DNA of 64,000 bases from Macrostomum lignano (taxonomy: Eukaryota). The DNA is taken from the NCBI GenBank assembly GCA_002269645.1, contig NIVC01001570.1, forward strand, positions 40,546-104,545, read 5' to 3'. Of the stretch, positions 1 through 36,656 are shown piece by piece. Positions within the stretch are counted from its first letter, which is position 1. Each line of letters opens with the position of its first letter. The notes below the pieces were generated by a model. The model saw only the letters and a list, made by a program, of their open reading frames with translations, did not search any database and was not told where the DNA came from. Made by a program: the position numbers and the translations under genes.

Positions 1-214
1 TTGTCTTCAGTGCTGCAACTTACAGCACTTACAACTCTTTTTGTGTTTTTCTCTTTCTCTTTGCTCCCTTTTTCTCATTTTTTCCTTTTCCTTTCCCCTT
101 TTTCGTCTTTTGTTTTTTCGTTTTTTTGGCAGTTAATCAATTTTGCGACTTACTTGGTTGGCCGCCAAATCGGTCGGCCGGATCGGCCGACTCGGCCGAC
201 TGTTGCGCATGTAT

Positions 215-930
215 GGCTGGGGTCGAGAACAAAGGAATTGGAAATCGGGGATAATTGGGGAAAACTGAGAACAATGGAAAAGTAAACATTGGAGAAAAGG
301 TGATAATTAGGTGCGAAAACGAGAACAAAAGAAAGAGAAAATCGGAGAAAATGTGATAATTGGTGGGGGTCGAGAGAACAAAAGAAGCAAAAACGAGAAC
401 AATAGAAGCGGAGGTGGGGTGGGTGTCACATGAGAAATTTGGGAAGGAGAACAATAGCGTGAGAAAAGGTTGCGCAAGAGAGGGGGGTGAGTCATCGATG
501 AGTCACCGAGGGGGAGAAGGGGTCACACGACTTGCGTCACCGTTTGGGAGTTTGAGAGGGGATGGGGAGACGGTGAGCACACAAAGTACTGTAAGTAGAC
601 ACAGGGAAAGAGGGGACAGCGCAGGAAAAGAGTGCAGAGGGAGACAAAAAAAAGGAGGAGGTAGAGAAAGTACAGGAAGAATAGGGCGGGAGCAGAAGAG
701 ATAGGGTAGAGGGGGAGGTACAGAAAGGGGTAGGGGCTCCGGAAAGGCAGGTGTGGCGGCAGGAGAGACGGGACCAAGGCAGCAGGAGAGGTGCAGCAGA
801 GCGGGAGTCTCCAGGCCCGGTCGGAGACCTGGCCGAGTCTCGACAGCTCTGTGCAGAGGGTGCACGGGATAGGAGGCACTTTCGAAAAAGTTCCCATGCC
901 CTATCCCGCGACCAGGGCGTGGTTACTTCA
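215..930 (-). repeat. 3' LTR, partial (U3 portion), copy of 17367-18081
   Basis: By-eye alignment shows about 4 substitutions and one 1-nt A-run indel over ~716 bp. Begins TGAAGTAACC on the minus strand versus TGATGTAACC in the 5' LTR. Confidence 0.93.
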
Positions 931-947
931 CACCCCCACTGCCTTTT
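931..947 (-). promoter_or_regulatory. Polypurine tract (PPT)
   Basis: Minus strand AAAAGGCAGTGGGGGTG directly precedes the TG start of the 3' LTR. Confidence 0.75.
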
Positions 948-1534
948 GTGACGGAACTGGTTCCGTCATCATCGCTGCCCAACATGGAACCACACAGACG
1001 GGAGCGGGATCTCAACCGAACGTGAAATCACAGAATTAACAAACCGCGAGCGGGAATGGAAAAAGGCGATAAAATAGAGGGGATAGCAATAAATTCACAA
1101 AACGAGATACATAGGTTGGAGTGCAATACAGAATTTCAAAAATTTCAACTGTTGCTGTGGCTAAAGTGGGAGGGTGGAAACACAGACAGCGCAATAGTAG
1201 GGAGAAAAATAGCGAATTGTCAACAATAAATTATCATAATTGGATAGAAGCGCAGCTGGGAAAGAGAGGAAACGGGGAAGGGTGAGGGAAGTGGGGAAAA
1301 AGAAGGGGGAAGGGTTGCTAGCACACAGCCAAGGGCAGAGCCTCGGGGAGAATGACGATTACACAGGGGAAAAATACTAATGCAGCGCAGTAAATTAATA
1401 AGCTAATTTCGCCGGGAGTTCAACCGCACGGAGGCCTAGCGTCCTTGAAGGCTCGGACCCCGCTTCAGCCAGTCAGAGGGCTTCGGGGCGATCGGTTGTA
1501 GGCTGGGAGGCGCCGCGCCCTGCGCTGGCCACTG

Positions 1535-1647
1535 TATAAAAGGCGCCACTGATAACGGGAGCCGGCTGCCTGCAACCTACACGGAGTCGCAGTTTCCAAC
1601 CAAGGCACTCAGCGCGATTTTCCAAACTATACAACTACTCGGTAAGT
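1535..1647 (+). promoter_or_regulatory. Candidate antisense Pol II promoter, short non-coding first exon and splice donor
   Basis: TATAAAA at 1535-1541 after a GC-rich stretch; consensus donor CG|GTAAGT at 1641/1642, followed by AT-rich intron-like DNA. Confidence 0.5.
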
Positions 1648-1989
1648 CCCATCACCAACCTGATTTCCTTTCGCCTATACGTTAAACGAAATCTACCCAC
1701 TCGCCATGCCTTTCGTTTTAAACTGAGCCAATTGCAGTAATAATATATGGCCTTTCTTACGGTAAAAGTAGTGAGCAGCCAACACAGAGCCATTTTTAGG
1801 AATTTTTAGGATAATGACACAACAATGACTCGTATATTGGTTATTAAAGTTTAAAAATGAATATTATGGAAGAACCGAATATTAATAGGATAATTTCACA
1901 CACACACACACGACAAACACACAACGCAAGGGGGCGGAAAGGCGGGTCGGACCGGCCGGCGGACGTCGCTCAGCAGGTAGTCAGCATCC

Positions 1990-3339
1990 TTACTCGAAAT
2001 GGGCCTCTTGATTTAGCTGGTACGGGCCATATGCCGCCACCTGAGCCATGGCACTTGCCCATGCTTCCACATAACGTTGGGCTGCCGCGGCCGTGAGCAC
2101 CACTCGGTGCCATCGGCTAGGCAAGATGTCGTTGCGCAGCACGCCCCTCAACTGCGGCAGAGTCGGGATGCCCAGGGCTTGGCATTGGACGACGAAGGCC
2201 GCATTCCGTACTTGTTGCAGCCGTGTCAGAGTTGGTGCAGACAGGGGCGGCTGCGCGATTGCAAAATGCTGCAAAGTGCCACGGGGCACCTCGGCCAGGC
2301 CCGCGTAGCCGGGCTCAACGTCGCCCAGGGCCGCCAACACCCACCCACAGCGGCGATTGAACCGTTGCGAGAGAGTGGCGGCCCAGGCCACTGTGGCAAA
2401 CGGCGCATAGAGGAGGGGCGCAGAGGCCGGCGCGGAGGCCGCAAGAATGCCGTCGTGGATGACGAGAGCCTCTTCCCATTCGGCGCCCTCGCTCAGGAAG
2501 CCCCAGAGCAGCCCTGGCAGGTCCGCAGGAAGCATGCCCCAGCGGCTGGCCAAGCTGGCCAGGCCAATCAATAGCCGGGCTCTCTGGGTTGGTGTCAGTT
2601 GTCTAGTCATCTGAGAGGAGGCTGCGCAGCTGATGATCACCTTCTTGTAGACCGGCCGATCGCAGGTGCTGAAGATTGCTGTGATGGGGGCACAGGACGG
2701 CGGCCGGGCTGTCAGGTGCGATGGTTCCTCATCCACAACCTTGCGGAGGAACTTGGCGGCCTGCCGGACTAGGTCGCCGAGGGCGTATTTGTAGGCGCTC
2801 TGGGCCGCTGCCTCGATGTACATTAACAGCGTATTGTCAACCAATCCCAGCAGGGCCGCTTTTGACAGGATGAGCAGACAGGGCCGGTCCAGGTTGTCGC
2901 GAAGTTGGCGCTCTAGAGTCGCATGCCTGTCCTCGGCCTGGAGTGGGCCATGATAGGACTCAGGCCCGACCCAGTGCACCAGATCCATAGCTGTCGCCGA
3001 AGGTTCGCCAGCCACCTGACCCCAATCGACTTCTTCTCTTTGCAGGGCGATGTCCACACTTCGGCGGCTGTTGGGCAGAACATCACGCAGGCGGCGGGCC
3101 GCCTCGCCGAATTCGGCCGCCAGGTCCGAAATGTCCGCGGTGTCGCCCCCAGCATTGGCCGGGTCGATTGTCTCGTCACCTTCTTCGACCCTGGCGGAGG
3201 CCGCCGCTGGCGGCTCGGGGCCGTCCTCCGCCTCTTGGATGGCGTCACGGGGCCGCTTTCGGCTAACTGGGCTGGCAGGACGCTCAGACGGTAAGCTGGA
3301 GCATAGCTGAATTCGATTGATGGTAGGCTTCGTGTCCAT
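1990..3339 (-). CDS. 449-aa hypothetical protein carried by the LTR element (N-terminal RKRPR NLS-like motif, acidic/disordered N-terminus, Leu/Ala-rich probably helical body)
   Basis: Long intact intronless GC-rich ORF flanked by AT-richer non-coding DNA, with its own TATA/CCAAT promoter ~95 nt upstream. No family recognised. Confidence 0.8.
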   Translation of the reverse strand: MDTKPTINRIQLCSSLPSERPASPVSRKRPRDAIQEAEDGPEPPAAASARVEEGDETIDPANAGGDTADISDLAAEFGEAARRLRDVLPNSRRSVDIALQREEVDWGQVAGEPSATAMDLVHWVGPESYHGPLQAEDRHATLERQLRDNLDRPCLLILSKAALLGLVDNTLLMYIEAAAQSAYKYALGDLVRQAAKFLRKVVDEEPSHLTARPPSCAPITAIFSTCDRPVYKKVIISCAASSQMTRQLTPTQRARLLIGLASLASRWGMLPADLPGLLWGFLSEGAEWEEALVIHDGILAASAPASAPLLYAPFATVAWAATLSQRFNRRCGWVLAALGDVEPGYAGLAEVPRGTLQHFAIAQPPLSAPTLTRLQQVRNAAFVVQCQALGIPTLPQLRGVLRNDILPSRWHRVVLTAAAAQRYVEAWASAMAQVAAYGPYQLNQEAHFE

Positions 3340-3384
3340 GTCAAGCTGGATAGTTCAGAGAATGCTTCAGCGATTGAAGGACAG

Positions 3385-3552
3385 AATGATTTCTCTGATT
3401 GATGATTTCCAGCTCTGGCAGGCGTGGGTCTTCTTATAGTGCCGGGGCTGGCTTCCCATTGGTTGAGCACATTGGGAGGCACACCTGCTGCGGCCGGGGT
3501 CGCCGTTGGCTTGGGACCGCTCGCTCTAGTCTCCGTGCGCTCTGATTGGCTG
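3385..3552 (-). promoter_or_regulatory. Internal promoter for the 449-aa ORF
   Basis: Minus strand: CAGCCAATCAG (CCAAT at 3549-3545), AACCAATGGG (3462-3458), TATAAGA (3438-3432), Inr-like TCATT/TCAAT ~30-45 nt downstream, ATG at 3339. Confidence 0.65.
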
Positions 3553-3885
3553 GTTCCGCCGCTTCCTGTTTCCTCACCTGTGAGAAGGGGCCAGACCCGA
3601 GACCACCTCCGGTCGCGCCCGCGGCAGATCCGTACTCCAGCCGACAGAGATCGCACTCCCACCTCACATGCACACATTCAGATCAGGCACACAAATTAAT
3701 TTGATTAATATGAATAGAAGAGGGATTTGGGAGATTAGACTCCGGAGGATAAATGATGATGCGGCCCAACTCCCTTCGATTTCTTCCTTCAACGCCACGC
3801 GCACGCAGTTCTCATCCATGCCTCCGAGACCCTCATAAACTTAACAGCCGAAAGAATTCGAAAGAGGAATTAATCATTAATTTGA

Positions 3886-4253
3886 CTGCCACCAGTTTGA
3901 TGTACTATTATAAAAGAGAAAGGGGAACCTACCACCATCTTGGCGCATTACCAAAGAAAAGAAAAGGAGGATCAGCCACCATTTTGAGAGAGGTTGCTAG
4001 GGAAAACTGCCACCAATTGTACATTAACAGGGAAGAGAAAGAGGGAACCCGTCACCACTTAGAGTGGATTGCCCGGGGAAACTGCCACCATTTGCCCTTC
4101 TACCAGAGGAGAGGAAGACGAAAAACTGCCATCACTTAGAGGTGTATCATTAAAAGAAGGCGGGGAAGAAGGCTACCACTACTTGATCACCTAGAGCTCA
4201 AGGGGAGGAGAGGGAATGAAGAAAGGAAGAAACCCCCAGGAAGGCCACTACCA
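3886..4253 (-). repeat. Degenerate array of ~8-9 PBS-like motifs (TGGTGGCAG consensus) with 33-47-nt period and variable spacers
   Basis: Plus-strand CTGCCACCA-like motifs at 3886, 3929, 3973, 4007, 4049, 4082, 4126, 4173 (weak at 4245), most preceded by a purine tract. Confidence 0.7.
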
Positions 4254-4344
4254 CACGCCATAAAGTTAAAATCCCCATCTATCTACATCCTAATACCCGG
4301 CTAGTTCCCTACTTCTATTTTATCCCTTAAATTCTCATTTTCAG

Positions 4345-4751
4345 GATTCCGGCCGCTAGTAGCCGAGCCCATCCTTGAAGAGGAGTCCGACTACGAAGCG
4401 CCCGAAGACAGCCATTCAGAGCCGGACGCCCCCTCTGATTCTGGGCCGGCTGCGCCATCTGGTGGCATAGGCGCCGCGGCTCCCGGGCCATGCGACCGCC
4501 GGGCCGCCAGCGAACCAGCGTCCGGGGCCGGTTGGCATCCGGTACCACCGCCGTTGTCAGCCCGAGCGCACGCTCCGCCGCCGGTCGCCGCGGTGACGCC
4601 CGTGGCTGCCGCTCCACAGCCCTTGCCAACCCCTGTGGTGGAGGCCGACGGCTCCTGGCATTTGGTCGTGCTGTCGACGGCCCTAATAGCCGGTCTCACA
4701 ATGCACTGGCTACTGCTCTTGGAGCTATTTCTGCGGCTTCCCAACTGCTGA
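4345..4751 (+). CDS. Putative terminal coding exon of an antisense gene: acidic segment, Pro/Ala linker, C-terminal hydrophobic (TM-like) helix
   Basis: Acceptor TTCTCATTTTCAG| at 4344; open frame xFRPLVAEPILEEESDYEAPEDSHSEPD...WHLVVLSTALIAGLTMHWLLLLELFLRLPNC*; ATTAAA at 4936-4941. Start codon not located. Confidence 0.45.
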
Positions 4752-5744
4752 TGCTGGTGGTTCTTAATGCTTACTTACTATTTCTGAACTATCTGTCCCC
4801 ATAACTTGACTTTAATTACTTACCTGACTTTACATTGACTAAACCACTGGCCTACTCTAAACTAATTGCTGCCCCATTTGCCTGATAAACTTAATTACAT
4901 TGAAGGCCCCCCCCCCTATTGCCTCATCGAAACCAATTAAAAGTTTCCCAAAATCGGACTTTCACAAAGTGTGAACAAACACACGAAATCAGACCTAAAG
5001 GTGCTAATTTCCTACGGTCCCAGACTTCCATTGTTCCCAGAAAATCTTGAACAGCGGGGCAGGACCTCCTGTGGAGCAGACCCATAGAAATTTTACTAGT
5101 TTCCAAGTTAATCCTATATATAATACTAAAAATGAAAATCTTGCTTGCTTGCTTGTAATCGATTAGAGAAAAAGTGGTTTAACCGATTTTCATGAGACTT
5201 GCACTGTTCAATCAGAAATTTTCCCGGGACGGTACATGTATCTTGGCTAAGAAATTGCTAAATTCTAAAGGGATTAAATATTCGAAAAACATACTTTTTT
5301 GCAAAGGTCAAGCAAACTTTTCGACTTGAAATGCATTGTAAGAATGCTAGAGAAAAAACTGACGACTGGTTGAATTCTGATTCTGAAATAGATTGCATCA
5401 TAACTGAAATGTAACTCCGACTTGAATTGCGTCACAGTATTGAAAATGCAGTGTGGAAGCGTAGCACCAGACTTGATTTAGATTGCGTAACCATATTCTC
5501 AACTTTAATTGAGACTGACACTGACTTGCCTGGGAAATTGATTATGTCATAACTGCTTCGTGAGTGAGTGTTGAATTATATAAGTGCTACAATTTCATTT
5601 ATAAATTCGATAAGATCTAGCCTAGATGTGAACAGACTGGACTGCTAATGCAGCGACCTGGGTTCGAATCTTAGTAGTGAAAATTTTTTTATTAAAAGCT
5701 TTTATTAAAAAAATAATAAAGGACTAAAGGCGTCATGCAAAAAA

Positions 5745-6830
5745 TCAGAGAAGCGTCATGTAAACAATCATAGAAGCGTCATGTAAACAATCATAGAAGC
5801 GTCATGTAAAAATCATAGAAGCGTCATGTAAACAATCATAGAAGCGTCATGTAAAAATCATAGAAGCGTCATGTAAAAATCATAAAAGCGTCATGTAAAC
5901 AATCTTAGAAGCGTCATGTAAACAATCTTAGAAGCGTCATGTAAACATCATAGAAGCGTCATGTAAAAATCATAAAAGCGTCATGTAAGCAATCATACAA
6001 GCGTCATGTAAAAAATCATAGAAGCGTCATGTAAACATCATAGAAGCGTCATGTAAACATCATAGAAGCGTCATGTAAAAATCATAGAAGCGCATCCTGC
6101 AAAAATCGTAGAAGCGTCATGTAAACAATCATAGAAGCGTCATGTAAAAATCATAGAAGCGCATCCTGCAAAAATCGTAGAAGCGTCATGTAAATAATCA
6201 TAGAAGCGTCATGTAAAAATCATAGTGAGTAGAAGCGTCATGTAAAAAGTCATAGAAGCGTCATGTAAACAATATTAGAAGCGTCATGTAAAAATCATAG
6301 AAGCGTCATGTAAAAATCATAAAAGCGTCATGTAAACAATCTTAGAAGCGTCATGTAAACAATCATAGAAGCGTCATGTAAAAAGTCATAGAAGCGTCAT
6401 GTAAACAATATTAGAAGCGTCATGTAAAAATCATAGAAGCGTCATGTAAAAATCATAAAAGCGTCATGTAAACAATCTTAGAAGCGTCATGTAAACAATC
6501 ATAGAAGCGTCATGTAAAAAATCATAGAAGCGTCATGTAAACAATCATACAAGCGTCATGTAAAAAATCATAGAAGCGTCATGAAACAATCATAGAAGCG
6601 TCATGTAAACAATCATAGAAGCGTCATGTAAACAATCATAGAAGCATCCTGCAAAAATCGTAGAAGCGTCATGAAAAAAATCATCGAAGCGTCATGTAAA
6701 AATCATAGAAGCGTCATGTAAAAATCATAGAAGCGTCATGTAAAAAATCATAGAAGCGTCATGAAAAAATCATAGAAGCATCATGTAAAAAATCAAAGGA
6801 GCGTCATGAAAAAATCATAGAAGCCTCATT
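5745..6830. repeat. 22-23-bp minisatellite (AGAAGCGTCATGTAAAAATCAT) inside Helitron 1
   Basis: Direct tandem copies visible. Confidence 0.95.
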
Positions 6831-7727
6831 TTAAAACTAATGAAAGTGTCATTTAAAAAATTAAGAGGCATCATAGTAGAATAAAAGAAGCGTCATGTCA
6901 GACATGAAGGGTGTCATGTAAAAATTAAATGAAGCTATAGTGCTGTGCTGGGGAGAAAAACTGTGACGTCAAGGCTCACAGAGAATAACTGAGATTACGG
7001 GGGGGGTTCTGAGATGTCAAAGCAAAAGTCAGATGCTACTTCAAAGTTCATGTACTTTACTCCATTTTTTATTACATTCTTTGTTGGCTCGCCACGGGGG
7101 GTGCTGATAGAAGAAGAGTCATGTAAAAAATAAAAGTAGCACTATGTATACATAAAAGAAAAGTCATGTCGAAGTTAAAAGATTCATTTGGGAATGGCTA
7201 CGATGTCAAAGCTTGGTGGAAATCGTTATAGTGCTGTGATTCTTAAAGAAGGAATCACTAAAATGTCAAGGCTTAGGGGAGAAGAATTGCTGAGATTTCA
7301 AGGCTTTAGGTTGGGTTAAAGTTAGGTTTAGGTCAGGTGTGGGTTGAGGGTTATATTTTATCGGGTTTCAAGGTTAACAGGGGATTTTTTAGATTTCAAG
7401 GTTTATGGGGGCCATCGCCGACATGTCAAGGCTTACGGGGTGAATAGCTGAGATGTCAGGGCTCACGGGGGTATAAATGAGATTTCAAGGCTAAAGTCAG
7501 AAGCTACATGTAGTTTATTGAAAACTTTTTATTCCGATATTTGATGCCTCCTCAGGGGAGGGATTGCTGATAAAAAAAGCGTAATGTAGAAAATAAAAGA
7601 AGCTTCATGTCGAAGTTAAGAGATTCATTTGGGAATCCCTACGATGTCGAGGCTTGCAGGGAATCGCTATAATGCTGTAGTAGTGCTATAATGACTCTTA
7701 GAGAGAATTACTGAAATGTCAATGCTT

Positions 7728-7794
7728 CAGGGTTAGGTTAGGGTTAGGGTTAGGGTTAGGGTTAGGGTTAGGCTAGGGTTAGGGTTAGGGTTAG
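7728..7794 (+). repeat. Interstitial telomeric repeat (TTAGGG)n; degenerate copy near 7306-7345
   Basis: ~10 TTAGGG units. Confidence 0.9.
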
Positions 7795-8016
7795 AAGGTT
7801 GACAGATATTTTTAGATTTCCAAGGCTTATTGGGGGCATTGCTGAGATGTCAAGGGGGGAAGTTGATATGTTAAAGCTTGTGGGGGGGAATTACTGACAT
7901 GTCAAGGCTTACAAGGTTTGACAGGAGATTTTTTAAGATTTCAAGGATACATGTAGCTTATTAAAAAAACATGTATTGCATTTTTTGGCTCCCCAACGGG
8001 GGGCGTAGATTGCTAG

Positions 8017-11000
8017 TCCTATATACTAAAATGAGTTGTCTGTATGTGGGTAGGTATGCGATAGATTTTAGAAAAAATGGCTCAACTGATTTTCTTCAAA
8101 CTTGCACCATTCGATCAGAAATTTTCCTGGGACGGTACATGCATCTTGGCTAAGAAATTGCTCAATATTAAAGGGATTAAATATTCGAAAAACATGCTTT
8201 TTTACAAAGGTCAAGCAGCTCTTTCGACCTGAAATGCATTGTAAGAATGCTAGAGAAAAAACTGACTGACTGAATTTCAATTCTGATAAAGATTGCATCA
8301 CAACAAGTTGAAAACAGTGCCGAAGAAATGCACACACAACTTGATTTAAATTGCGTAACAATATTGCTAACTTAAATTGACACTGATACTGGCTGACTGA
8401 GAAATTGATTATGTCATAACTTTTTACTCTAACCGATTTGCTCTAACCGAATTGCGAAGAACCGGTTCGAATCTTAGTAGTGCAAAAAGATTTTTTTATT
8501 CAAAAACCTTAAAAACACAAAATGCTAAACACAAAAAAGCACAATGTCAAACATCAAAGAGCCACCATGTCGAAGATTAAAGAGCCATCATGTCTAACAT
8601 TAAAGAGCCACCATGTCTAACATTAAAGAGCCACCATGTCGAACATTAAAGAGCCACCATGTCAAGCATAAAAGGACCACCATGTCGAACATTAAAGAGC
8701 TACCATGTCAAAAATTAAAGAGCCACCATGTCTAACATTATAGAGCCACCATGTCGAACATTAAAGAGCCATCATTACATTAAGGTGCCACTAGGTCAAA
8801 CATGAAAGAGCCACCATGTCTAACATTTACGAGTCACCATGTCTAACATTTTCGAGTCACCATGTCAATTATTAAAGAGCCATCATGTCAAACATTAAAG
8901 AGCCATCATGTCAAACATTAAAGAGCCACCATGTCAAACATTAAAGAGCCACCATGTCAAACATTAAAGAGCCATCATGTCAAACATTAAAGGACCACCA
9001 TGTCAAACATTAAAGAGCCATCATGTCAAACATTAAAGGACCACCATGTCAAACATTAAAGAGGCACCATGTCGAACATTAAAAAGCCACCATGCTGAAC
9101 ATTAAAGAGCCACCATGTAAAAATTAAACAGCCACCATGTCTAACATTAAAGAGCCACCATGTGGAACATTAAAGATCCACCATGTCGAACATTATAGAG
9201 CCACCATGTTGAACATTAAAGAGCCACCATGTCAAACATTAAAGAGCCAGCATGTCAAATATTAAAGAGCCACCATTTCAAACATTAAAGAGCCATCATT
9301 ACAGACATTAAGGTGCCACCAGGTCAAACATTAAAGAGCCACCATGTCTAACATTAACGAGTCACCATGTCAAGTATATTCGTGACTCCATGTCAAACAT
9401 CAAATAGCCATCATACCAAACATTAAAGAGCCACCATGTCGAAAATAAAAAATCCACCATGTAGAACATTAAAGAGCCATCATGTCAAACATAAAAGATA
9501 CACAATTTCAAACCTAAAAGTAAGCGTCATGCCAATTTTAAAAGAGCCACTATAGAGCTAAGGAAATTGTTGCACTAGCTACTTATTGTCTGGTGGATGC
9601 TTACTACTTGGGGATGCTTACTATCTGGGGGATGCTTGCTATCCGGGAGGGGGGATGCTTCCTATCTGGGGGATGCTTGCTATCAGGGGGATGCTTGCTA
9701 TCTGGGGGATGCTTGCTATCTGGGAGAATATTAAAGAGCCACTATGTCGAACATTAAAGAGCTACCATGTCTAACATAAAAGAGGCACCATGCCAAACAT
9801 AAAAGAGCCACCCTGTCGAACATTAAAGAGCTACCATGCCAAACGTAAAAGAGCCACTATGTAGAACATAAAAGAGCCACCATGTCAAACATTAAAGAGC
9901 CACAATGTCAAACATTAAAGAGCCACCATGTCGAACATTAAAGAATCATCATGTCAAACATAAAAGAGCCACCATGTCAAACGTTAAAGAGACACCATGT
10001 CAGACATTAAAAAAAACCGAATCAAACATAAAAGAGCTACCATGTAGAACATAAAAGAGCCAAAAGAGCCACAAACATAAAAGAGCCACCATCTCAAACA
10101 TATATGTGACTCCATGTCAAACATAAAAGAGCCATCATGTCAAACATTAAAGAGCCACCATGTCGAACATTAAAGAACCATCATGTCTAACATTAAAGAG
10201 CTACCTTGTCAAACACTAAAGAGCCACCATGTCGAACATCAAAGAGCCACCATGTCAAACATAAAAGAGACACCATTTCGAAAATTAAAGAGCAACCATG
10301 TCAAACATTAATGAGACACCATGTCAGACATTAAAAAAACCCCGATTCAAACATAAAAGAGCCACCATGTAGAACATAAAAGAGTCACCATGTCAAACAT
10401 TAAAGAGCCAACATGTCAAACATAAAAGATACACAATTTCAAACCTAAAAGTAAGCGTCATGCCAATTTTAAAGGAGCCACTATAGAGCTAAGGAAATTG
10501 TTGCACTAGCTACTTATTGTCTGGTGGATGCTTACTATTTGGGGATGCTTGCTATCTGGGGGATGCTTGCTATCTGGGAGGGGGGATGCTTCCTATCTGG
10601 GGGATGCTTGCTATCTGGGGGATGCTTGCTATCTGGGAGGGGGGATGCTTCCTATCTGGGGGATGCTTGCTATCTGGGAGGGCGGATGCTTCCTATTTGA
10701 GGGATGCTTGCTATCTGGGGGATGCTTGCTATCTGGGGGAATATTAAAGAGCCACTATGTCGAACATTAAAGAGCCACCATGTCAACCATAGAAGAGCCA
10801 CCATGTCGAACATAAAAGAGCCGCCATGTCGAACATAAAAGAGCCACCATGTCGAACATAAAAGAGCCACCATGCCAAGCATAAAAGAGCCACCATGTCA
10901 AACATAAAAGAGCCACCATGTCAAACATAAAAGAGCCACCATGCCAAACATGAAAGAGCCACCCTGTCGAACATAAAATGCTTGCTATCTGGGGGATGCT

Positions 11001-11315
11001 TGCTATCTGGGGGATGGTTTGCTATTTGGGGGATGCTTGCTATCTGGGGGATGCTTGCTATCTGGGGGATGCTTGCTATCTGGGGGATGCTTGCTATCTG
11101 GGGGATGCTTGCTATTTGGGGGATGCTTGCAATCTGGGGGATGCTTGCTATCTGGGGGATGCTTGCTGTCTTGGGATGATTTATTTTTGCATTGCACTTT
11201 ATTTGAGCAGTTTGTCTGTTGTCTTTGAGAAGGCTTTATCTGGCTGTCTTTTTGTTACCTGTAGAGAGCAGAGATTCTATCCACATGTCCCCCAACGGGG
11301 GGCGAAGATTGCTAG
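8017..11315 (+). mobile_element. Non-autonomous Helitron (copy 2, related family, head-to-tail with copy 1)
   Basis: Starts TCCTATATACTAAAATG directly after the CTAG of copy 1; ~8085-8500 is homologous to ~5180-5690; ends CCCCAACGGGGGGCGAAGATTGCTAG|T. Confidence 0.85.
8555..11170. repeat. Interleaved 23-bp (TAAAGAGCCACCATGTCAAACAT) and 18-bp (GGGGGATGCTTGCTATCT) minisatellites inside Helitron 2
   Basis: Tandem copies; the block ~9480-9760 is duplicated at ~10400-10770. Confidence 0.95.
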
Positions 11316-11545
11316 TATTTACTGATAGGGAATTAACGCCTACTGTACGGGCCTAATTTTCGAGCTAAAATCTTAGATATTTAAACAACACCAACGAGCA
11401 CGAGGTCACAACATAAATTCGAGTAATAGAGGGCATACGTAAATACGCGAAAAGCGGTCCCCAACGGGGCAACACGAGCAAAATTTCGACACGCGAATCG
11501 GGGGGGGGGAATTAAGCAATCACTGGCTAGCTACCGATCTGTTAC

Positions 11546-12070
11546 TCAGCGGGGGTCGAATGGGAGACTCACACCTAGCAAGTAAACCTTTTCTGTTCGA
11601 TAGTCTATGATAGCATGCGTACTGGCTAGAAAAGCACTACCCAGGAGGGAAACTGCTGCTGAATTGCCAACGACCAGAAAGAGGATTCTCACCTCTTCTA
11701 GCCCAATAACTGCTGTGAGGGTGGCCTGGCCTAGCATCTCTAATTCATTGCCCGTGTAGGACACGGCCTTCACACATGGGGGCTCCAGGGCCTCCACACT
11801 CTGTCCGGTAATTTTAGTAAAGTCTTTGACTGTTAGCAAAGACAGCGCACTGCCCCCATCTGCCAGGAGGCGGGTGGGAACATTCTCAATTGGCAACTCT
11901 ACAACAATATCTCTCCCGCGTTGTCCTCTAGCTGGTCTTGGCTGATAGAAATCGGGCACCTTCTCAAATCTAAACTTCTTGCTGGGCGGACGTGGCAGGT
12001 TAAGCTGGGCCCTAGAGAGGGAACGGGGCTGAGTTCGGGCCGGGCCATTCAGCCCTCCCACGGGTTTCCC
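11546..12070 (-). CDS. Retropepsin-like aspartic protease, -1 frame relative to gag, terminated by TGA with no downstream RT
   Basis: LLADGGSALSLL (D[ST]G-type motif, here DGG) and LLGSAFL (LLGRDFL-type motif); frame overlaps the gag end at the slippery site. Confidence 0.85.
   Translation of the reverse strand, partial: GKPVGGLNGPARTQPRSLSRAQLNLPRPPSKKFRFEKVPDFYQPRPARGQRGRDIVVELPIENVPTRLLADGGSALSLLTVKDFTKITGQSVEALEPPCVKAVSYTGNELEMLGQATLTAVIGLEEVRILFLVVGNSAAVSLLGSAFLASTHAIIDYRTEKVYLLGVSLPFDPR
12006..12070 (-). promoter_or_regulatory. -1 programmed ribosomal frameshift signal
   Basis: G GGA AAC heptamer (12070-12064), 8-nt spacer, stem GGGCTGA/TCAGCCC; loop GGCCC could pair with downstream GGGCC (pseudoknot). 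Confidence 0.8.
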
Positions 12071-13494
12071 GAACCCGGGGGCTCTTCAGGCGTGGGAGGA
12101 GGAGGCATCAGAGCTTGCGCGCGCAGCTGGGCGAGCCTCTCCTGCCTCTCCCTGGTAGCCTCGTCTAACATATCTCTGCCCCAATCCTCTAAATCTTGCC
12201 TATGGCGATCGGGTGGCGCACGAAGCTGCAATTGCTGCTGCTGCACACCCGGCGCCGGCGGCGTGGGCGCCTCCTGAATTGCAAGCGGCGGGGGCTGGGA
12301 TTGGCGCCAGTTCCTACTGTTATTAGAGCCGCCCTGCCCCTGCCTCCAGTTCCTGTTGGGAGTGGCGGGGCGAGGGGGCCTCATCTGCTGGGGCAGCTGG
12401 GCAACAGACTCTGCTGTCGCCTTCATAGTTTCATTGAGCTGCACCAGCTGGTTGCGCAGATCCTTTTGCGTTTGCTCTAGCGCGCCCAACCTCTCTTGCA
12501 TCTCTGATAGGCCGTCACTGTCCTCCTCCGTCTCGTCAGCTTCCTGGTTCACCATCCTGACCCACTTGCGAGGGGGCCTGGGTGGCTGCTGAGGTTGCAG
12601 ACGGACTTCGGTGCGGGACTCAGACCTGGGCGGGCCACTACTGTCCCATTTCCCGGCTAAGTCTGCGGCTTCTAACAGGGCTTGCTGCTGTTCTAACACC
12701 TGCTCAATTGTCTGCCAGCGACGGCTCAACAGATCTTGTCTGACCTGGCGGGGGAGCTTAGCGTGTTCCAAGTAGGTGTACACGATTTCTTGTTCTCTCT
12801 GCTCACCCTGAATCTGAGGAAACATGGCCGTTATCTGAGATCTTATCATAGCAGCAAAAGCACTATGTGATTGGCCGGGTTTCTGGCTCAGATTCTTCAG
12901 CTTATTTCTCTTAGCCAGATCAGTGTTGGCCTCGCCCAACTGCTCTCCTAATCTAGATACGAACTGCTCAAAGGGCAATTGCCCGTCCAATCCTAAGGCT
13001 AAGTTCTGAAATTCACCTGGGAGGTGCGAGATGAGCACCTGCTTCCTAGCCTGATCTCCTACAGTTCTCTCCGCGTCCAGCTTGTAGATCATTCTCTCTA
13101 CCCATTGCACAAAACAGTGTTCGCCGGGAGAGAACTTCTCTACGTAGATTTTCGGCCTCTGAGCTTCTTGGCCCATGTTTAGCTGGTTAAACGCATTGGC
13201 TATAGCAGCAACTAAGTCTCCTAGCTGCGGGACTGCCTGAGGAGGATTCTGGGCTGCGTCCGGGGGAGCAGCGGCGGCTGCTGCGTCACCCTGATTGGGA
13301 GCGGGAGCTGCTACTCCTTCATCTGGTTCCTCAACTACTACTGCTTCTGGAGGCTGAGGGACCTGGTTACCAGCGGCTGCGGCCATTGCGGCTGCGGGGG
13401 CGGCAACTGCTGGGGTGTCAGCGGCCGAGGGTGGTTGACCAGGGGCGTCTGCGCACACAGCTTCTACGACCCTATCTCCACGCGCCCGTGACAT
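12049..13494 (-). CDS. gag: Gag (Ty3/Gypsy capsid-like), 481 aa from MSRARG
   Basis: KFSPGE..FVQWVERM and MHR-like LKNLSQKPGQSHSAFAAMIR; coiled-coil-like segment; no CCHC knuckle. The 66 extra in-frame upstream codons in the ORF track are low-complexity and probably non-coding. Confidence 0.85.
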   Translation of the reverse strand: MSRARGDRVVEAVCADAPGQPPSAADTPAVAAPAAAMAAAAGNQVPQPPEAVVVEEPDEGVAAPAPNQGDAAAAAAPPDAAQNPPQAVPQLGDLVAAIANAFNQLNMGQEAQRPKIYVEKFSPGEHCFVQWVERMIYKLDAERTVGDQARKQVLISHLPGEFQNLALGLDGQLPFEQFVSRLGEQLGEANTDLAKRNKLKNLSQKPGQSHSAFAAMIRSQITAMFPQIQGEQREQEIVYTYLEHAKLPRQVRQDLLSRRWQTIEQVLEQQQALLEAADLAGKWDSSGPPRSESRTEVRLQPQQPPRPPRKWVRMVNQEADETEEDSDGLSEMQERLGALEQTQKDLRNQLVQLNETMKATAESVAQLPQQMRPPRPATPNRNWRQGQGGSNNSRNWRQSQPPPLAIQEAPTPPAPGVQQQQLQLRAPPDRHRQDLEDWGRDMLDEATRERQERLAQLRAQALMPPPPTPEEPPGSGNPWEG

Positions 13495-15846
13495 GTGAAT
13501 GCCGGATAGCTGGGGGAGTACCCACCACCGGGAAGGAAAAGAAAAGAAAACCGGGGCAACTACAGGTAAAGACCGAAAAGTTGATCCGAAACACACAAAC
13601 ACACTCACACACACACAAACACAGACAAAACCCACATACTTGCGGCGTCGAAGAAAACAAATTGAAAAACGGGTGGCTCCACATAATTCCATTTAGGCAG
13701 TCCTAACGGCTTCACTCGGCAAAGCACACTGACTCAAACTGCGGCTACCACTACCAGTTGTCTATGGCACATCCTGACAGGGAAAAATTGGCTATTCAGA
13801 GAGACTTGACCTTCATTTTGCGGCCATGCTAGGGAACCCAAATGCCGACCGTAAACGGACTTACGGCACCTGTACAAATTCTCCCCTAGGGTTGCGCGCC
13901 GGACCCCATTTCCTTAAGAAAGCTACTACGAAGAAGCGTTGGCGCCTGGACCCAAAAACCCAAGTGGCGGGAGCAATCCCCATGGAGGTCCTCCCACTTT
14001 ACTGCCCTTGCACAGCCGGAAAACCGTCGGAGTCCAGTGGGGCTTCCACCTCAGGACTACCAATCTTGTACACGCAGCTTCACAAAAGGCGGGAATCCAG
14101 CTCCCCTACGTCTAGCAGAATCCACAAAAACCAAGACCTCCCCCTTCTGTTCAGAGCGAAGGCGCGCAGCGGGAGTCCAGACTAAACTGTCCCCGAAGTT
14201 TTCAGGTTAGGCGGATTACAAGCCTGAAACTCTCGCCCGCTTTCCTAGGATAAACAGACCTAAGTGAGTATCTTCCTGAAATGCTTGCCCCTCCGATACT
14301 CCACCTTTGCTGCAGCTCGAAATAGCATACTTGGGACCTTTATCTGATGGCGGAGAAAGTCCTACAGTTGTCAGCCTCTCCACTTTACTGTACTTGAACG
14401 CCCGGTTCTACCAGGAGACAGCGGTACCTCCATCTAGGTTATTCCAAGTTGCCAGAGACGTCAACCCGTCTTATTGACCTTGCGGGGCACTGGGGTGGCA
14501 CTCTATGTACCGGGGCTTTACATTAGGGGACTGCATGCAACCCTGCGTCTAAGCGCTTAGTGGGCTGCAGTGGCCAGAGGGGAAAAGAGTTGCGCAATAG
14601 CGCCTTCCTGGGCCAGGCTGACAAGTCGGGCAGGAGCGCCGTTCTACCGGGTCGGGCTGATTGGCACACCCACCTCCCCTATCAGACTGACAGCAGGGGG
14701 GAGGAATTACTAAAGGAGGAGAATGCAGCAGGAAACATTACGAGATCACTGGGGGCCACCAGACTTCCAGTACACCATTCCAATACTCACTGAACTCCAC
14801 TATCAATAGGATACTATGGGATCTACTATTTCCAGCCACTGCACCAGCCCAAATGCAACCAAAGCAGTTACTACCGGGTCTGCAATACAGTGGGGAGAGT
14901 CAGCAGACACGTTGGGATCGAATCCCAGCCATGAAGGCACCAGGGGTTACCGCAGAATTCAGGTCCGGGCTGATCGCAGGTATTCCATAGGAGGTGACAC
15001 TTTTTTTAGCCCGAGATTTTTGAGTCACACTGATACCCTACAGAGATACAATCACACCGCTATTCCCATTCCTGCGAGACTTTGGTATCCCCCAATGTTT
15101 CCAAGGCCATGACTACTGCTTCCCTTACTATGCATATATAGCGAGTTCCCCATAGCCCTTGATAGCTGTTCATTCTAATGGACAAACAAAACACGCTCCG
15201 GTCTCTACGCATTTCTAGGATTAACTGAGCGATCAGGGAGAGCGACTGTTACACTCCCCCGAGTAAAAGAAAGAGGTAGGACAAAGGAAAGAAATGCTTC
15301 GCTTCCAGCTTCCCTGTGCTTGCGTGATGAGGCTTCCGTACCTGGCTGGCTGTCCACCTCAACACTCACACAGTTCTGCTGTAGGCTAGGCGAGAGAAAG
15401 AAAGGGAGGGGAAATAAAGCATATTACCATGAAATAGAAAGTGAGTCCGGAAAATTCACTTTCGCAGTTCTTCACACACTCCGTTACCAGGTAGCTATTC
15501 TGATTGTAATCAAATCCGCTCGTCTACCACTTCACACTTTCTAGCGCTGAAACTGATCGGCTAAATTAATTTTAAATTGAATCAGGGGCTTTTGGCGAAT
15601 GAATGAATTTGGAAATTTCGAATGAATTGAACGAATTCGCAGCCCGAAAAATTTGAAAAGTTACATTAATATTTTTGGATTTTGTTGCCTCACGCCATGG
15701 GAGAAGAGAATGACGATTGGCGATTTTTACGATTGGTAGATTTAGACATGGCACTCTTTGCGCTTCGGCCACCATTCTGAGGGATGCCACAGGTGCGCTT
15801 GTCACATCTAAACCACCAGTCCGAAACTCAGCGCTGTTTGCACCAG

Positions 15847-15864
15847 ATCCCACCGCTGCCACCA
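15847..15864 (-). promoter_or_regulatory. Primer binding site, tRNA-Leu
   Basis: TGGTGGCAGCGGTGGGAT, 18 nt complementary to the 3' end (AUCCCACCGCUGCCACCA) of eukaryotic tRNA-Leu(AAG/TAG type), 3 nt from the LTR end. Confidence 0.92.
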
Positions 15865-15867
15865 TTT

Positions 15868-18081
15868 TGATGTAACCGCCCTTGTCGCCTGTCCGCTCCG
15901 TAGAGAGACGAACGCATGACTAGAGGGGCAATGACCGTAGGCTGCCTATGACCGGGCAATGACCTGACGGACCTCCAGCACCAGACTGTCCCGCCCACAT
16001 GATTAGTAGCTTTGGTAGCGCTTCGTGACCAGAGGGCCAAGGACCCACATGGACCCCACCTGTAGCCAAGGTGCAATAGTTGGTCACTCGGTCATAGTAT
16101 GACCGAGTGGCTGCCACCACTCTATGTGACCTGGCGCACCTGGATCTTTCTACCAGACCTCTCGAGGCTAGAGCCCCGCCTGGATTGGTTACCAGGGGAT
16201 TTAGGCTAACAGGGGAGACGCATGCAGCCGAGTACAGGGACTCTGCTTGGGGCATGATCGGGAACTCTGGGCTCAATCCTGGAGGATTTCTCAGCAGGGG
16301 ATCCTTTGTGGCTGTGAGCGAGGCTGACTTGCGACTTTGATTACTAAGAGTAGTATGAGGCGAACATGTACTGTCTACAGTTTAGATTGCTCAGGGCGAA
16401 GGGACGCGTTAGCATGGGGTTGCAACCTTCCTACTGCCATTCTGTGCCAAGACTCGCTAATCCCTCTACTGCACGCACACGCGGCCCCGCAGCACGCACT
16501 CACAGGCGGGCTTGCACGGGGAGAGGCCATTAGCTTACCCAAACTTCCTTATGCTTTGCCACCCCGGGAGAAAGGCTTAGCAAGCCATGAGTGAAATGAT
16601 GGTGAAAGATTGAATAATGATGAAGTTAGTTAATAGTTAATAATTAGGCCCTTAGGCAAATAAGCAGGCAATTAGGCGGCTTCACTATTGAGTAAAATAC
16701 AGCAAAAGATACGGTATCACAATTGGCTCAGCTCTCTAATCAGACAATGGAAAATAGGCAAACCCCGGATAAGCAAAGGCAATTAGAGCACAAATTAGTA
16801 GTAGGAACTTACCGGCAGCTGCACAGAGAGAGAGAGAGGCGGAGTGACCGAGGGCGGCTGTAGGCTGCAGTCAGGCAGACGGTGAAGCGGCGATGCGCTG
16901 GAGCGACGAGGCGCTGATGTAGATCAGGCGATGCTGATGATGCTGGGCGGTATCAGACCGCTGGCCGATAGGCGAGCTCACTTGGGGAGCTAAGGATAAC
17001 TTGGCGGTAACAGACCGCGGACCGGCAGGGATTCGTCTTATAGACGAATGGGTCAGAACTCAATCTGACAGCAAGTCCAAAGAAGGACGAGGAGAGGAAC
17101 AGAGATAACTCAGTTGAGTATTCTCATGCCGAAATCGCTTCCTTTTATAGACCTCACAGCCGCCTCCTCAAGGTCGTTACCATGGCTCCCTCTCTCTGAT
17201 TGGCTGCCGGCAGAATGACGTCAGAATGAGTCATGATGAGAAGCATGAGACCGGCATAGCAACATGAGAAATCGGGAAATTGCGCAATCCGGAGGTGGGG
17301 TGGGGGGATAATTGGCGCAGCGGGTGGTCGCGAAAGTGTTGCGCAAGCAAACATTGAGAACAATAGGGCTGGGGTCGAGAACAAAGGAATTGGAAATCGG
17401 GGATAATTGGGGAAAACTGAGAACAATGGAAAAGTAAACATTGGAGAAAAGGTGATAATTAGGTGCGAAAACGAGAACAAAAGAAAGAGAAAATCGGAGA
17501 AAATGTGATAATTGGTGGGGGTCGAGAGAACAAAAGAAGCAAAAACGAGAACAATAGAAGCGGAGGTGGGGTGGGTGTCACATGAGAAATTTGGGAAGGA
17601 GAACAATAGCGTGAGAAAAGGTTGCGCAAGAGAGGGGGATGAGTCATCGATGAGTCACCGAGGGGGAGAAGGGGTCACACGACTTGCGTCACCGTTTGGG
17701 AGTTTGAGAGGGGATGGGGAGACGGTGAGCACACAAAGTACTGTAAGTAGACACAGGGAAAGAGGGGACAGCGCAGGAAAAGAGTGCAGAGGGAGACAAA
17801 AAAAGGAGGAGGTAGAGAAAGTACAGGAAGAATAGGGCGGGAACAGAAGAGATAGGGTAGAGGGGGAGGTACAGAAAGGGGTAGGGGCTCCGGAAAGGCA
17901 GGTGTGGCGGCAGGAGAGACGGGACCAAGGCAGCAGGAGAGGTGCAGCAGAGCGGGAGTCTCCAGGCCCGGTCGGAGACCTGGCCGAGTCTCGACAGCTC
18001 TGTGCAGAGGGTGCACGGGATAGGAGGCACTTTCGAAAAAGTTCCCATGCCCTATCCCGCGACCAGAGCGTGGTTACATCA
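15868..18081 (-). repeat. 5' LTR (2214 bp)
   Basis: 10-bp terminal inverted repeat TGATGTAACC/GGTTACATCA; PBS adjacent; U3 duplicated at 215-930. Confidence 0.9.
17143..17233 (-). promoter_or_regulatory. LTR core promoter
   Basis: AP-1 TGAGTCA 17227-17233, CRE TGACGTCA 17216-17223, CCAAT 17203-17199, TATAAAA 17149-17143; splice donor CCG|GTAAGT at 16812. Confidence 0.7.

Positions 18082-20283: not shown

Positions 20284-36656
<16,373 letters not shown>

Follow-up and report, generated by a model that had tools for sequence, protein, structure and literature searches.

The window in this study is the whole stretch of DNA that was analyzed, 64,000 nt from Macrostomum lignano (GCA_002269645.1, contig NIVC01001570.1, positions 40,546-104,545, forward strand). 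It contains an element, here named A1, whose sense is the minus strand of the window. A1 represents a young Ty3/Gypsy-type family with 2.2-kb LTRs, a tRNA-Leu PBS, Gag, a predicted -1 frameshift and a protease. RT is absent from the window element (custom profile, six frames). The features of the locus are as follows.

15870-18081, minus: 5' LTR, 2,212 bp, TGATGTAACC...GGTTACATCA, common to the partner element B1
15849-15866, minus: 18-nt PBS, tRNA-Leu (AAG/TAG), identical in A1, B1, A2 and B2
13495-15848, minus: 2.35-kb leader, common to B1 (A1/B1 comparison)
12049-13494, minus: gag, 481 aa, with a capsid-like region and a C-terminal part missing from B1
12064-12070, minus: predicted -1 frameshift heptamer G GGA AAC, in the gag frame
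11546-12085, minus: aspartic protease frame, D-G-G at 11852-11860, stop codon at its end
8017-11315, plus: second non-autonomous Helitron-like insert, window copy only
5112-8016, plus: first non-autonomous Helitron-like insert, window copy only
4305-4751, plus: antisense frame with a hydrophobic C-terminus; 134 codons follow a conserved acceptor-like site at 4344/4345
3886-4136, minus: degenerate repeat with six short PBS-like cores, each at most 11 nt with 0-2 mismatches
3430-3550, minus: candidate internal promoter (TATA-like and two CCAAT motifs, from motif conservation) upstream of ORF449
1990-3339, minus: accessory gene ORF449, 449 aa, with a homolog in the matching slot of A2
1534-1647, plus: antisense TATA box and splice-donor-like site, within the piece common to B1
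931-1764, minus: 3' piece common to B1, with the PPT at its end (931-940)
216-930, minus: 3' LTR, first part; the remainder lies left of the window (L011:2216-3724)
1-215, no strand assigned: right end of a hAT-like DNA transposon, 14-bp TIR, 8-bp TSD

Structure and genes of the window element

The A1 LTRs end in TGATG...CATCA and carry 10-bp terminal inverted repeats. Target duplications are 4-bp, and the window element is flanked by CGCT/CGCT. The description of the element in the sequence-only reading (LTR, PBS, PPT, gag and protease) was confirmed overall, with corrections. For example, the 3' LTR, which had been taken for a segment, is whole; it is split by a hAT-like insert of ~6.5 kb and resumes left of the window. 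The PBS-like array consists of short matches in a degenerate repeat rather than full PBS copies, and it is absent from B1, A2 and B2. The two Helitron-like inserts lie in tandem, with TC...CTAG termini at a target site between A and T that is empty in other A1 copies. The tRNA-end pattern containing the PBS has 12 exact genomic matches, and tRNA-Leu AAG/TAG was found in 4 of 4 tested. The identity of the A1 and B1 leaders extends into the first gag codons, until about 13304, and the leader is likely a packaging region.

Purifying selection acts on the genes of A. The dN/dS of gag was 0.09 between the window element and a diverged copy, C100. The capsid regions of A and B match the gags of complete Gypsy elements in the genome and gave Atlas leads to Retrotrans_gag/Ty3_capsid (scores about 0.8), with no Pfam match above the cut-off. 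The CCHC knuckle (CX2CX4HX4C) was not found in Gag of A1, A2 or B1. Thus, RNA binding by the Gag of A is an assumption, and a knuckle-less RNA-binding region is possible. The frameshift heptamer is kept in 16 of the 17 A1 copies compared, and its A2 equivalent at the same position is A AAA AAC; the hairpin 3' of the slippery site is no more stable than shuffled sequences (z -0.32). The A1 protease frame stops where the protease domain ends in complete relatives. The protease matches ASPRV1 (E 5e-7) with the motif D-G-G, not D-T/S-G, and is 41% identical to that of A2, where the motif is D-S-G. Its dN/dS within the first family was 0.45 (95% 0.12-1.87), an uninformative value based on 9 differences only; values were 0.19 in A2 and 0.26 for A1 vs A2.

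The 449-aa accessory gene proposed earlier proved to be real. Its dN/dS of 0.11 indicates purifying selection, and the TATA-like and CCAAT motifs upstream of it are conserved, also in the C100 copy. No match to ORF449 was identified in a word-indexed protein search (singly or as a 5-sequence alignment), in the Atlas or in Pfam. In addition, its profile had no relative among solved structures (best E 0.57), and no related locus was found in the metagenome or viral contigs searched. The AlphaFold model was poor (pLDDT 44); it matched nothing in viral Foldseek at E<=0.001, and its best Z in VIA was 7.2, to generic helical bundles. A bacterial TPR protein (P0002) was dropped as a relative because the match was driven by repeats. 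ORF449 has no strong TM segment, and its homologs are present in sequencing-run assemblies. It is an old, selected passenger of A, dispensable in cis, since short A forms occur without it. The protein represents a new selected family; no claim is made of a new fold. Most likely, though as a guess, it helps in trans, for instance as an expression factor or a host-silencing factor.

The candidate antisense spliced gene proposed earlier was upheld in its frame. The frame at 4305-4751 is under selection (dN/dS 0.23) and is the sole stop-free frame of six. No start codon was located for it, and the candidate first exon contains no ATG. No splice joints for it were seen in contigs from four runs, in which strand, ends and level are unreadable; no listed source of the matching contigs is recorded as RNA. 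None of the interior ORFs of A1 matched a Pfam family, env included.

The partner element B1 and the distribution of pol domains

A1 was expected to obtain RT and integrase from a partner with the same LTRs, and such a partner was found. In this element, B1, a single frame encodes capsid, a dUTPase-like domain, RT, RNase H and integrase, and protease is lacking. It occupies 10 loci, which are all the RT matches at or above 90% among the best 111 of 4,666 candidates scored, and the full frame is unbroken in only two of them. A1 has at least 58 protease loci. The entire LTR and leader are common to A1 and B1 at >99%. No fixed difference separates the 5' LTRs of 17 A1 and 7 B1 copies, and the LTR alignment holds six shared polymorphisms and 0 fixed differences across 2,238 columns. 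The capsids of A and B are only 22-27% identical. TSDs match in 8 of the 10 long A1 elements that are complete and in 5 of the 6 complete B1 elements, and the LTR pairs of these insertions differ by 0-0.4%. Both halves have inserted independently and recently.

The gene contents of the two components are complementary. The protease profile matched all 7 A elements and, at E<=10, none of the 12 B elements; the RT profile matched 12 of 12 B and 0 of 7 A elements. Intact Gag and protease without RT or integrase is a family trait of A, as the sequence-only reading had supposed. A1 is a young, multi-copy family whose members share the exact Helitron-free layout with TSDs, so the window element is not a one-off deletion; no member with a full pol appeared among the copies scored, and the interior is linked to these LTRs in other copies. 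The A frame stops at the end of the protease, and B pol starts at the domain next after it, which is predicted to fold as a dUTPase-like domain and not as a retropepsin. B is read in a single frame without frameshift and lacks the protease and the C-terminal part of Gag, and thus has no evident route to free or excess Gag. A search of proteins of 847-2,697 aa gave no homolog of B1 residues 90-480. A complex prediction of the A1 and B1 capsids, folded without alignments, was uninformative (score 0.00).

The earlier view of A1 as an RT-parasitic satellite of an autonomous element with full pol was not supported, as the only same-LTR, RT-bearing partner found lacks both protease and the Gag C-terminal part. 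Dependence is therefore likely mutual. It is unlikely that dependence runs one way. In that case B would be self-sufficient, either with its polyprotein left uncleaved or through cleavage by a protease of the host, and A would be a satellite or helper that brings Gag and protease, comparable to the wheat elements Sabrina_SA or Quinta. B does have a capsid domain of its own and shows normal TSDs at its insertions, A exceeds B about 6 to 1 (58 vs 10 loci, among the candidates scored), as is often so in satellites, and semi-autonomous Gag-Pro elements are already described (PMC9744471). Nonetheless, B has no evident route to free or excess Gag, in both families B has lost the protease while selection has kept it in A, and processing is reported to be required for Ty3 transposition (a paper cited in PMC5371799).

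A third element could also serve as helper for both A and B, either a complete member of the clade missing from the assembly or unrelated complete Gypsy families, which are numerous. This explanation is improbable, somewhat more so than one-way dependence. The assembly is fragmented (5,269 contigs) and many copies stop at contig ends. In addition, the genome searches scored the best candidates (111 of 4,666 for RT, 150 of 3,939 for integrase, 150 of 888 for protease and 40 of 71 for the leader), which leaves room for a rare complete helper. However, scoring of the capsid candidates, 101 of 101, revealed no new type, and the best 40 of 71 leader matches were all A1 (34 loci) or B1 (6 loci). Clade-level RT, integrase and capsid matches among those scored came only from A1, A2, B1, B2 and two remnants. 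The gene sets of A and B also complement each other at the border of a domain, and a full helper doing the work would make each of them redundant. All 22 of 22 other Gypsy relatives examined have protease and RT, in the order protease, linker, RT (18 of 18 relatives in a first set and 4 of 4 in a later one). The protease and RT matches near C255, C822, C100:604-614k, C621 and C2503 were traced to adjacent elements that are unrelated and share 25-49% identity with B.

A second family divided in the same way

A second family, A2/B2, has LTRs unrelated to those of A1/B1 and is divided in the identical manner. A1 and A2 have only 38 bp of DNA in common, at the PBS. The proteins pair A1 with A2 and B1 with B2, and the LTRs pair A1 with B1 and A2 with B2. 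In the RT tree B1 and B2 were grouped with support of 100/99, and in the protease tree A1 and A2 were grouped with 100/100. All four capsids form a single clade (100/100), within which A1 and A2 do not separate as a group of their own; branches are long in both the protease and the capsid tree. The LTR and leader of B2 are nested among A2 copies. Both near-complete B2 loci are broken at one identical place in the capsid region. A2 has young copies. A third, degraded B-like lineage, C251, has other DNA in place of the protease slot.

These data bear on the possibility that a single complete element recently gave rise to A and B by deletion or recombination and that both are now in decay. Frame breaks do occur in many A and B copies. 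However, some of these may be assembly errors, as short-read contigs differ from an assembly copy by single-base indels. In addition, the A and B capsids are strongly diverged (see above), the split is common to two families with 71% identity in RT-RNase H and saturation at synonymous sites, and there are young independent insertions of both halves. Recent decay is thus already largely refuted, and we give it very little probability.

Comparison with known systems and the two-part model

LARD and TRIM elements usually lack coding capacity and depend on RT in trans, and complex retroviruses such as foamy viruses use internal promoters for accessory genes. A1 resembles the former in needing RT in trans and differs in its intact, selected coding capacity (dN/dS of 0.09 for gag, 0.11 for ORF449 and 0.23 for the antisense frame). 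It resembles the latter in its internal promoter-like motifs, but none of its interior ORFs matched env in Pfam, and it shows no retroviral-type pol and no transactivator evidence. The likeness to foamy viruses drawn earlier was not sustained: nothing links the accessory genes to foamy-virus-like transactivators, and the partner pol is of Ty3/Gypsy type.

Two LTRs, an 18-nt PBS, a PPT and a capsid gag agree with the Metaviridae profile, which has gag with capsid and nucleocapsid and pol with PR, RT, RH and IN, in this order, in one element (PMC7879559). The TG...CA ends and 4-bp TSDs agree with the expected 4-6 bp (PMC12440569). A carries only PR and B only RT-RH-IN, and the pol set is complete only in A and B together. 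Thus, neither half is a canonical Metaviridae member, and the pair derives from one.

Several systems resemble the pair in part. First, the wheat elements RLG_Sabrina_SA (GAG-Pro) with RLG_Wilma and RLG_Quinta with RLG_Cereba have an intact Gag without RT or IN, LTR ends, PBS and PPT common to their partners, diverged Gag and additional ORFs of unknown function, with Gag donation proposed; Sabrina_SA also has protease beside Gag, like A1 (PMC9744471, PMC11302176). In these papers the wheat partners are described as carrying a complete set, with the protease named for Cereba. A1 has the semi-autonomous GAG-Pro layout and ends common to its partner, but the partner found does not carry a full protein set (protease in 0 of 12 B elements), lacks the Gag C-terminal part and has LTR and leader in common at >99%, and the split occurs in two families. 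Secondly, a Ty3 CA-RT-IN construct, with capsid fused to RT-IN and no protease, complements in trans and has the layout of B (reviewed in PMC5371799). It is a laboratory construct in yeast, whereas B is a natural element. Third, in the bipartite endogenous florendoviruses (Caulimoviridae) two components with complementary, partly redundant ORFs make up a full reverse-transcribing genome, a state likewise inferred from genomic copies (PMC10377300). Capsid, encoded on both halves, is the redundant part in A and B. The florendoviruses are plant pararetroviruses, whose caulimovirid genomes have a movement protein and no LTRs or integrase; A/B, with LTRs and integrase, works like one and is not a member. 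This review reports no multipartite genomes elsewhere among the Ortervirales. Lastly, LTR elements of bdelloid rotifers have a dUTPase(-like) domain between protease and RT and extra ORFs 3' of pol, among them small ones that have a TM segment (PMC5408684). They are complete single elements whose ORF3 is env, a GDSL esterase or a DEDDy nuclease, unlike ORF449, which matched no Pfam family. No protease-less or two-part Gypsy element was among the top literature matches listed, drawn from the main texts of largely open-access papers.

For these reasons, A and B are, from their sequences, probably the halves of an obligately two-part Gypsy LTR retrotransposon, and not a satellite with an autonomous element. 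The complementary gene content, the common LTR, leader, PBS and PPT, separate young insertions of A and of B, the identical split in a second family and purifying selection on the genes of A were observed. We infer co-assembly, trans-cleavage, frameshifting and splicing, and TSDs and LTR identity suggest replication in virus-like particles. The same LTR promoter would transcribe A and B. A would yield Gag and, through the -1 frameshift, Gag-protease; the B polyprotein would enter the particle of A through its paralogous capsid domain, and the protease of A would release RT and integrase in trans. RT could then copy either RNA, primed by tRNA-Leu, and integrase could insert the cDNA of either with duplication of 4 bp. 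The likeness of LTR and leader may be maintained by template switching when both RNAs are packaged together, or DNA-level conversion could homogenize the LTRs.

We also favor, somewhat less firmly, a fuller reading, in which the LTR retrotransposon is naturally segmented. A Gypsy lineage of ancient origin would have split at the protease/dUTPase border into mutually dependent, separately integrating, co-packaged components that continually exchange LTRs and set the Gag:Pol ratio partly via copy number. Both components would have diverged together into two or more families, the Gag-protease half carrying an unknown family of accessory proteins.

LTR retrotransposons are treated as single genomes, either autonomous or parasitic. 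If the model is true, a stable pair of incomplete halves extends genome segmentation, so far found in viruses and by inference in some endogenous plant pararetroviruses, to integrating retroelements. Annotation by RT and integrase alone would label B autonomous and A a satellite, and thus such pairs may be common yet unrecognized. The pair would also provide a countable system for asking why multipartite genomes persist, in which chromosomal copy ratio, ages and exchange are measurable and the two co-diverged families serve as replicates.

The Gag-protease element and its copies

The window element lies on the minus strand in a 764-Mb eukaryotic assembly (contig G000:C1570) and represents a family, here called A1, that encodes Gag and protease.

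Features of the window element
15870-18081, minus strand: 5' LTR with 10-bp inverted ends
Directly after the 5' LTR, minus strand: 18-nt PBS
gag, 481 aa, stopping just past a G GGA AAC heptamer
5112-11315: two tandem Helitron-like inserts
1990-3339: 449-aa frame (ORF449), followed by the PPT and then the 3' LTR

The PBS is of the tRNA-Leu type (of the genomic matches to the tRNA-end pattern, all four that were tested are tRNA-Leu genes). An aspartic protease in the -1 frame relative to gag, followed by a stop, matches human ASPRV1 (E 5e-7). The sequence-only reading described a 3' LTR segment about 99% identical to the 5' LTR. The high identity holds (6 substitutions in 2,224 aligned bases), but the 3' LTR is complete rather than a segment, as it is interrupted by a hAT-like insert and continues left of the window. 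The target duplication is CGCT/CGCT. The insert, a DNA transposon of about 6.5 kb (window 1-215 plus L011:3725-10000), is bounded by 14-bp TIRs and an 8-bp TSD and contains long frames resembling transposase. The first Helitron-like insert contains eleven TTAGGG-type repeats (7729-7794), a MITE-like 137-nt inverted repeat pair lies at 35463-36232, and the remaining window is dense in minisatellites.

Copies sharing this layout without the Helitrons and with TSDs, as expected of a family, were found. The junction is Helitron-free in 15 of 18 other A1 loci, the remaining three stopping short of it, and contigs from independent sequencing runs span the empty site; thus, this layout is not an assembly artefact. 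Complete long copies measure 13.04-13.16 kb, their LTR pairs diverge by 0.05-0.3%, and 7 of 9, in addition to the window element, have matching TSDs. The ORF449 region has at least 29 near-full matches at 97% or more (40 of 42 candidates scored). Among the part of the protease candidates scored, the A1 protease occurs at 58 or more loci; all 137 residues are unbroken in 33, where the frame stays open for just 179 or 186 codons. In some cases (C4075/C2906, C847/C4636) two loci have flanks in common, or match at 99.8% and carry one and the same TSD. These are copies of one insertion, and therefore locus counts exceed independent insertion events. A short A1 form lacking window 1849-3801, and with it ORF449, has young LTRs and, in the C181 copy, a TSD.

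In addition, a repeat of about 1.2 kb at two loci 94% alike (L104:4255-5469, L105:4125-5346) contains rearranged A1 pieces (window 4964-5112, 11313-11617 and 11760-11980) at about 80% identity. It may be an older part of A1 that a different element carries along. The genome protease search also gave dozens of short protease fragments of this kind.

The protease-less partner

The gag search also found elements with a 1,553-codon frame, here called B1. These are 96-99.6% identical to A1 over window 13304-18081 (LTR, leader and first gag codons) and over a 3' piece (931-1764), and differ in a 4.7-kb middle, in which Pfam matched RT, RNase H and integrase and no protease. All 10 RT matches at 90% or more were of B1 type (part of the candidates scored). 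The full frame is unbroken in 2 of 10 loci, one locus being truncated by a contig end. Complete copies have matching TSDs in 5 of 6 cases, and their LTR pairs diverge by 0.09-0.4%.

All 18 other Gypsy elements sampled have a D-T/S-G protease, which precedes the RT motif by 428-447 residues. A profile built from these proteases and searched in six frames (E<=10) matched all 7 A elements (E 8e-9 to 7e-13) but none of the 12 B elements. Conversely, an RT profile matched each of the 12 B elements and none of the 7 A elements, which bears out the original report of no RT in the window-type element. The partner expected from that reading exists with the same LTR, RT, RNase H and integrase, but not with a full pol. 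The protease-linker-RT order is present in four further Gypsy relatives, and the B segment from capsid to RT aligns with the post-protease domain of complete relatives. Its predicted fold is dUTPase-like (pLDDT 74, VIA Z 8-9.8), and the Foldseek matches listed are all dUTPase or dCTP deaminase. Thus, A stops at the end of the protease and B pol opens at the next domain. The motif V-x-x-V-N lies past the capsid region in A1 Gag and directly before RT in B1 and in the second B family (B2, below); it may mark shared cleavage sites.

No complete helper appeared among the candidates scored; a rare one may exist beyond them, since the RT, integrase, protease and leader searches cover part of their candidates. 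The B1 capsid search, with 101 of 101 candidates scored, gave only A1, A2, B1, B2 and one remnant, with no new type. Among candidates scored, RT and integrase matches fall from at least 64% (B types and remnants) to at most 50% (other families).

A second pair, LTR exchange and accessory frames

A second Gag-protease family, A2, has 16 near-full matches in the genome, a 2.0-kb LTR unlike that of A1, Gag, an A AAA AAC heptamer and a D-S-G protease; Pfam and the RT profile found no RT. Its partner, B2 (two near-complete loci and one 5'-truncated remnant), has the A2 LTR and leader and encodes capsid-linker-RT-RH-IN, with no protease found by profile search. Both near-complete loci are interrupted at the identical place in the capsid region. 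A degraded third B-like lineage with its own diverged LTR and leader (L106-L108, G000:C251:200-215k) has a pol 73% identical to B2 in DNA.

A1 and A2 have only 38 bp of DNA in common, at the PBS. B1 and B2 group in the RT tree (100/99), and A1 and A2 in the protease tree (100/100, on long branches; 41% identity, at most 27% with others). In the capsid tree all four form one clade (100/100) with B1 and B2 together (99/98) and A1 and A2 not grouped with support; capsid identities are 43% for A1-A2, 30% for B1-B2 and 22-27% for A-B. B1 and B2 RT-RH are 71% identical, with synonymous sites saturated. The A/B split is therefore older than the divergence of the two families.

The LTRs do not mirror this deep protein split. 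Across 2,238 columns, the 5' LTRs of 17 A1 and 7 B1 copies show no fixed difference and share six polymorphisms. Over the 2,517 columns of the leader two differences are fixed, both close to the border, and the 3' piece has eight, all within 56 columns of it (counts exclude the diverged A1 copy on contig C100). B2 LTR and leader nest among A2 copies (0.7-3.5%). Because LTRs and leaders are near-identical despite the deep protein split, continual A-B recombination is needed. The usual route is template switching between co-packaged RNAs; DNA conversion is an alternative.

ORF449 had been read as a gene with its own promoter. A gene under selection it is: the window and C100 frames are 77% identical (dS 1.33, dN/dS 0.11, 95% 0.07-0.15; pairwise Nei-Gojobori, own script), and ORF449 is the sole stop-free frame of six in this comparison. 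The candidate promoter consists of conserved TATA and CCAAT motifs upstream. In the long form of A2, the matching slot holds a 363-aa homolog (six full-length loci, dN/dS 0.09-0.10), which aligns with ORF449 at 24% across 175 aa (pairwise E 4e-6) and shares H-x-G-x-x-A...Y-A-P...W-A with it. Beyond this genome, ORF449 matches only three Logan proteins, one full length at about 30%. Short forms also exist in A2 (C380, C2246, C3728); ORF449 is not needed in cis, as B and the short forms of A transpose in its absence. The C100 copy (L012-L014, G000:C100:357-369k) is about 96-97% identical to the window in LTR and gag and only 73% in ORF449 DNA; it therefore appears to be a mosaic whose accessory cassette was exchanged between sublineages. 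A broken ORF449 relative (72% DNA) lies at L016 (G000:C201:632.5-633.9k), with no LTR match within 30 kb, and a third variant of the accessory gene, 56-69% identical to that of A2, occurs at L121.

The proposed antisense spliced gene survives as a selected frame (4305-4751, dN/dS 0.23, 0.11-0.41) with donor- and acceptor-like sites kept; neither a start codon nor a spliced contig was found. An A2 antisense frame in the matching slot (L115:7957-8550, dN/dS 0.22) lacks a hydrophobic tail and shows no similarity to it that could be detected.

A probable two-part retrotransposon

The two halves have complementary content and shared cis elements, both have inserted recently and independently, the genes of A are under purifying selection, and the same split occurs twice. 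The window observation is confirmed and strengthened: the element is probably one half, the one with Gag and protease, of an obligately two-part Gypsy retrotransposon. A and B would be transcribed jointly, A supplying Gag and Gag-protease. The B polyprotein would enter the A particle through its capsid domain and be cleaved in trans, and either RNA could then be copied and integrated. A Ty3 CA-RT-IN construct with the same layout as B is reported in a review to restore cDNA synthesis in trans (PMC5371799). The A:B locus ratio is 58:10 in family 1 (among candidates scored) and about 16:2-3 in family 2; one might speculate that it parallels the direction of Gag:Pol needs.

The model has several weak points. 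First, the A1 protease motif is D-G-G, a variant that occurs in some plant Gypsy proteases. Secondly, the selection estimate for the A1 protease is uninformative inside family 1. Third, the B2 copies are broken.

Wheat Sabrina_SA and Quinta work like A alone, but their partners are described as complete, whereas B is without protease (PMC9744471, PMC11302176). The A+B pair resembles the bipartite florendoviruses in its way of working; a review of these states that multipartite genomes are otherwise absent from Ortervirales (PMC10377300). Neither A nor B alone has the pol by which the ICTV defines Metaviridae; together they do (PMC7879559). No comparable two-part Gypsy pair is among the literature matches listed, a scope outside which most subscription papers and Repbase lie. 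If the mutual dependence is borne out, the pair would represent a genome architecture new to LTR retrotransposons.
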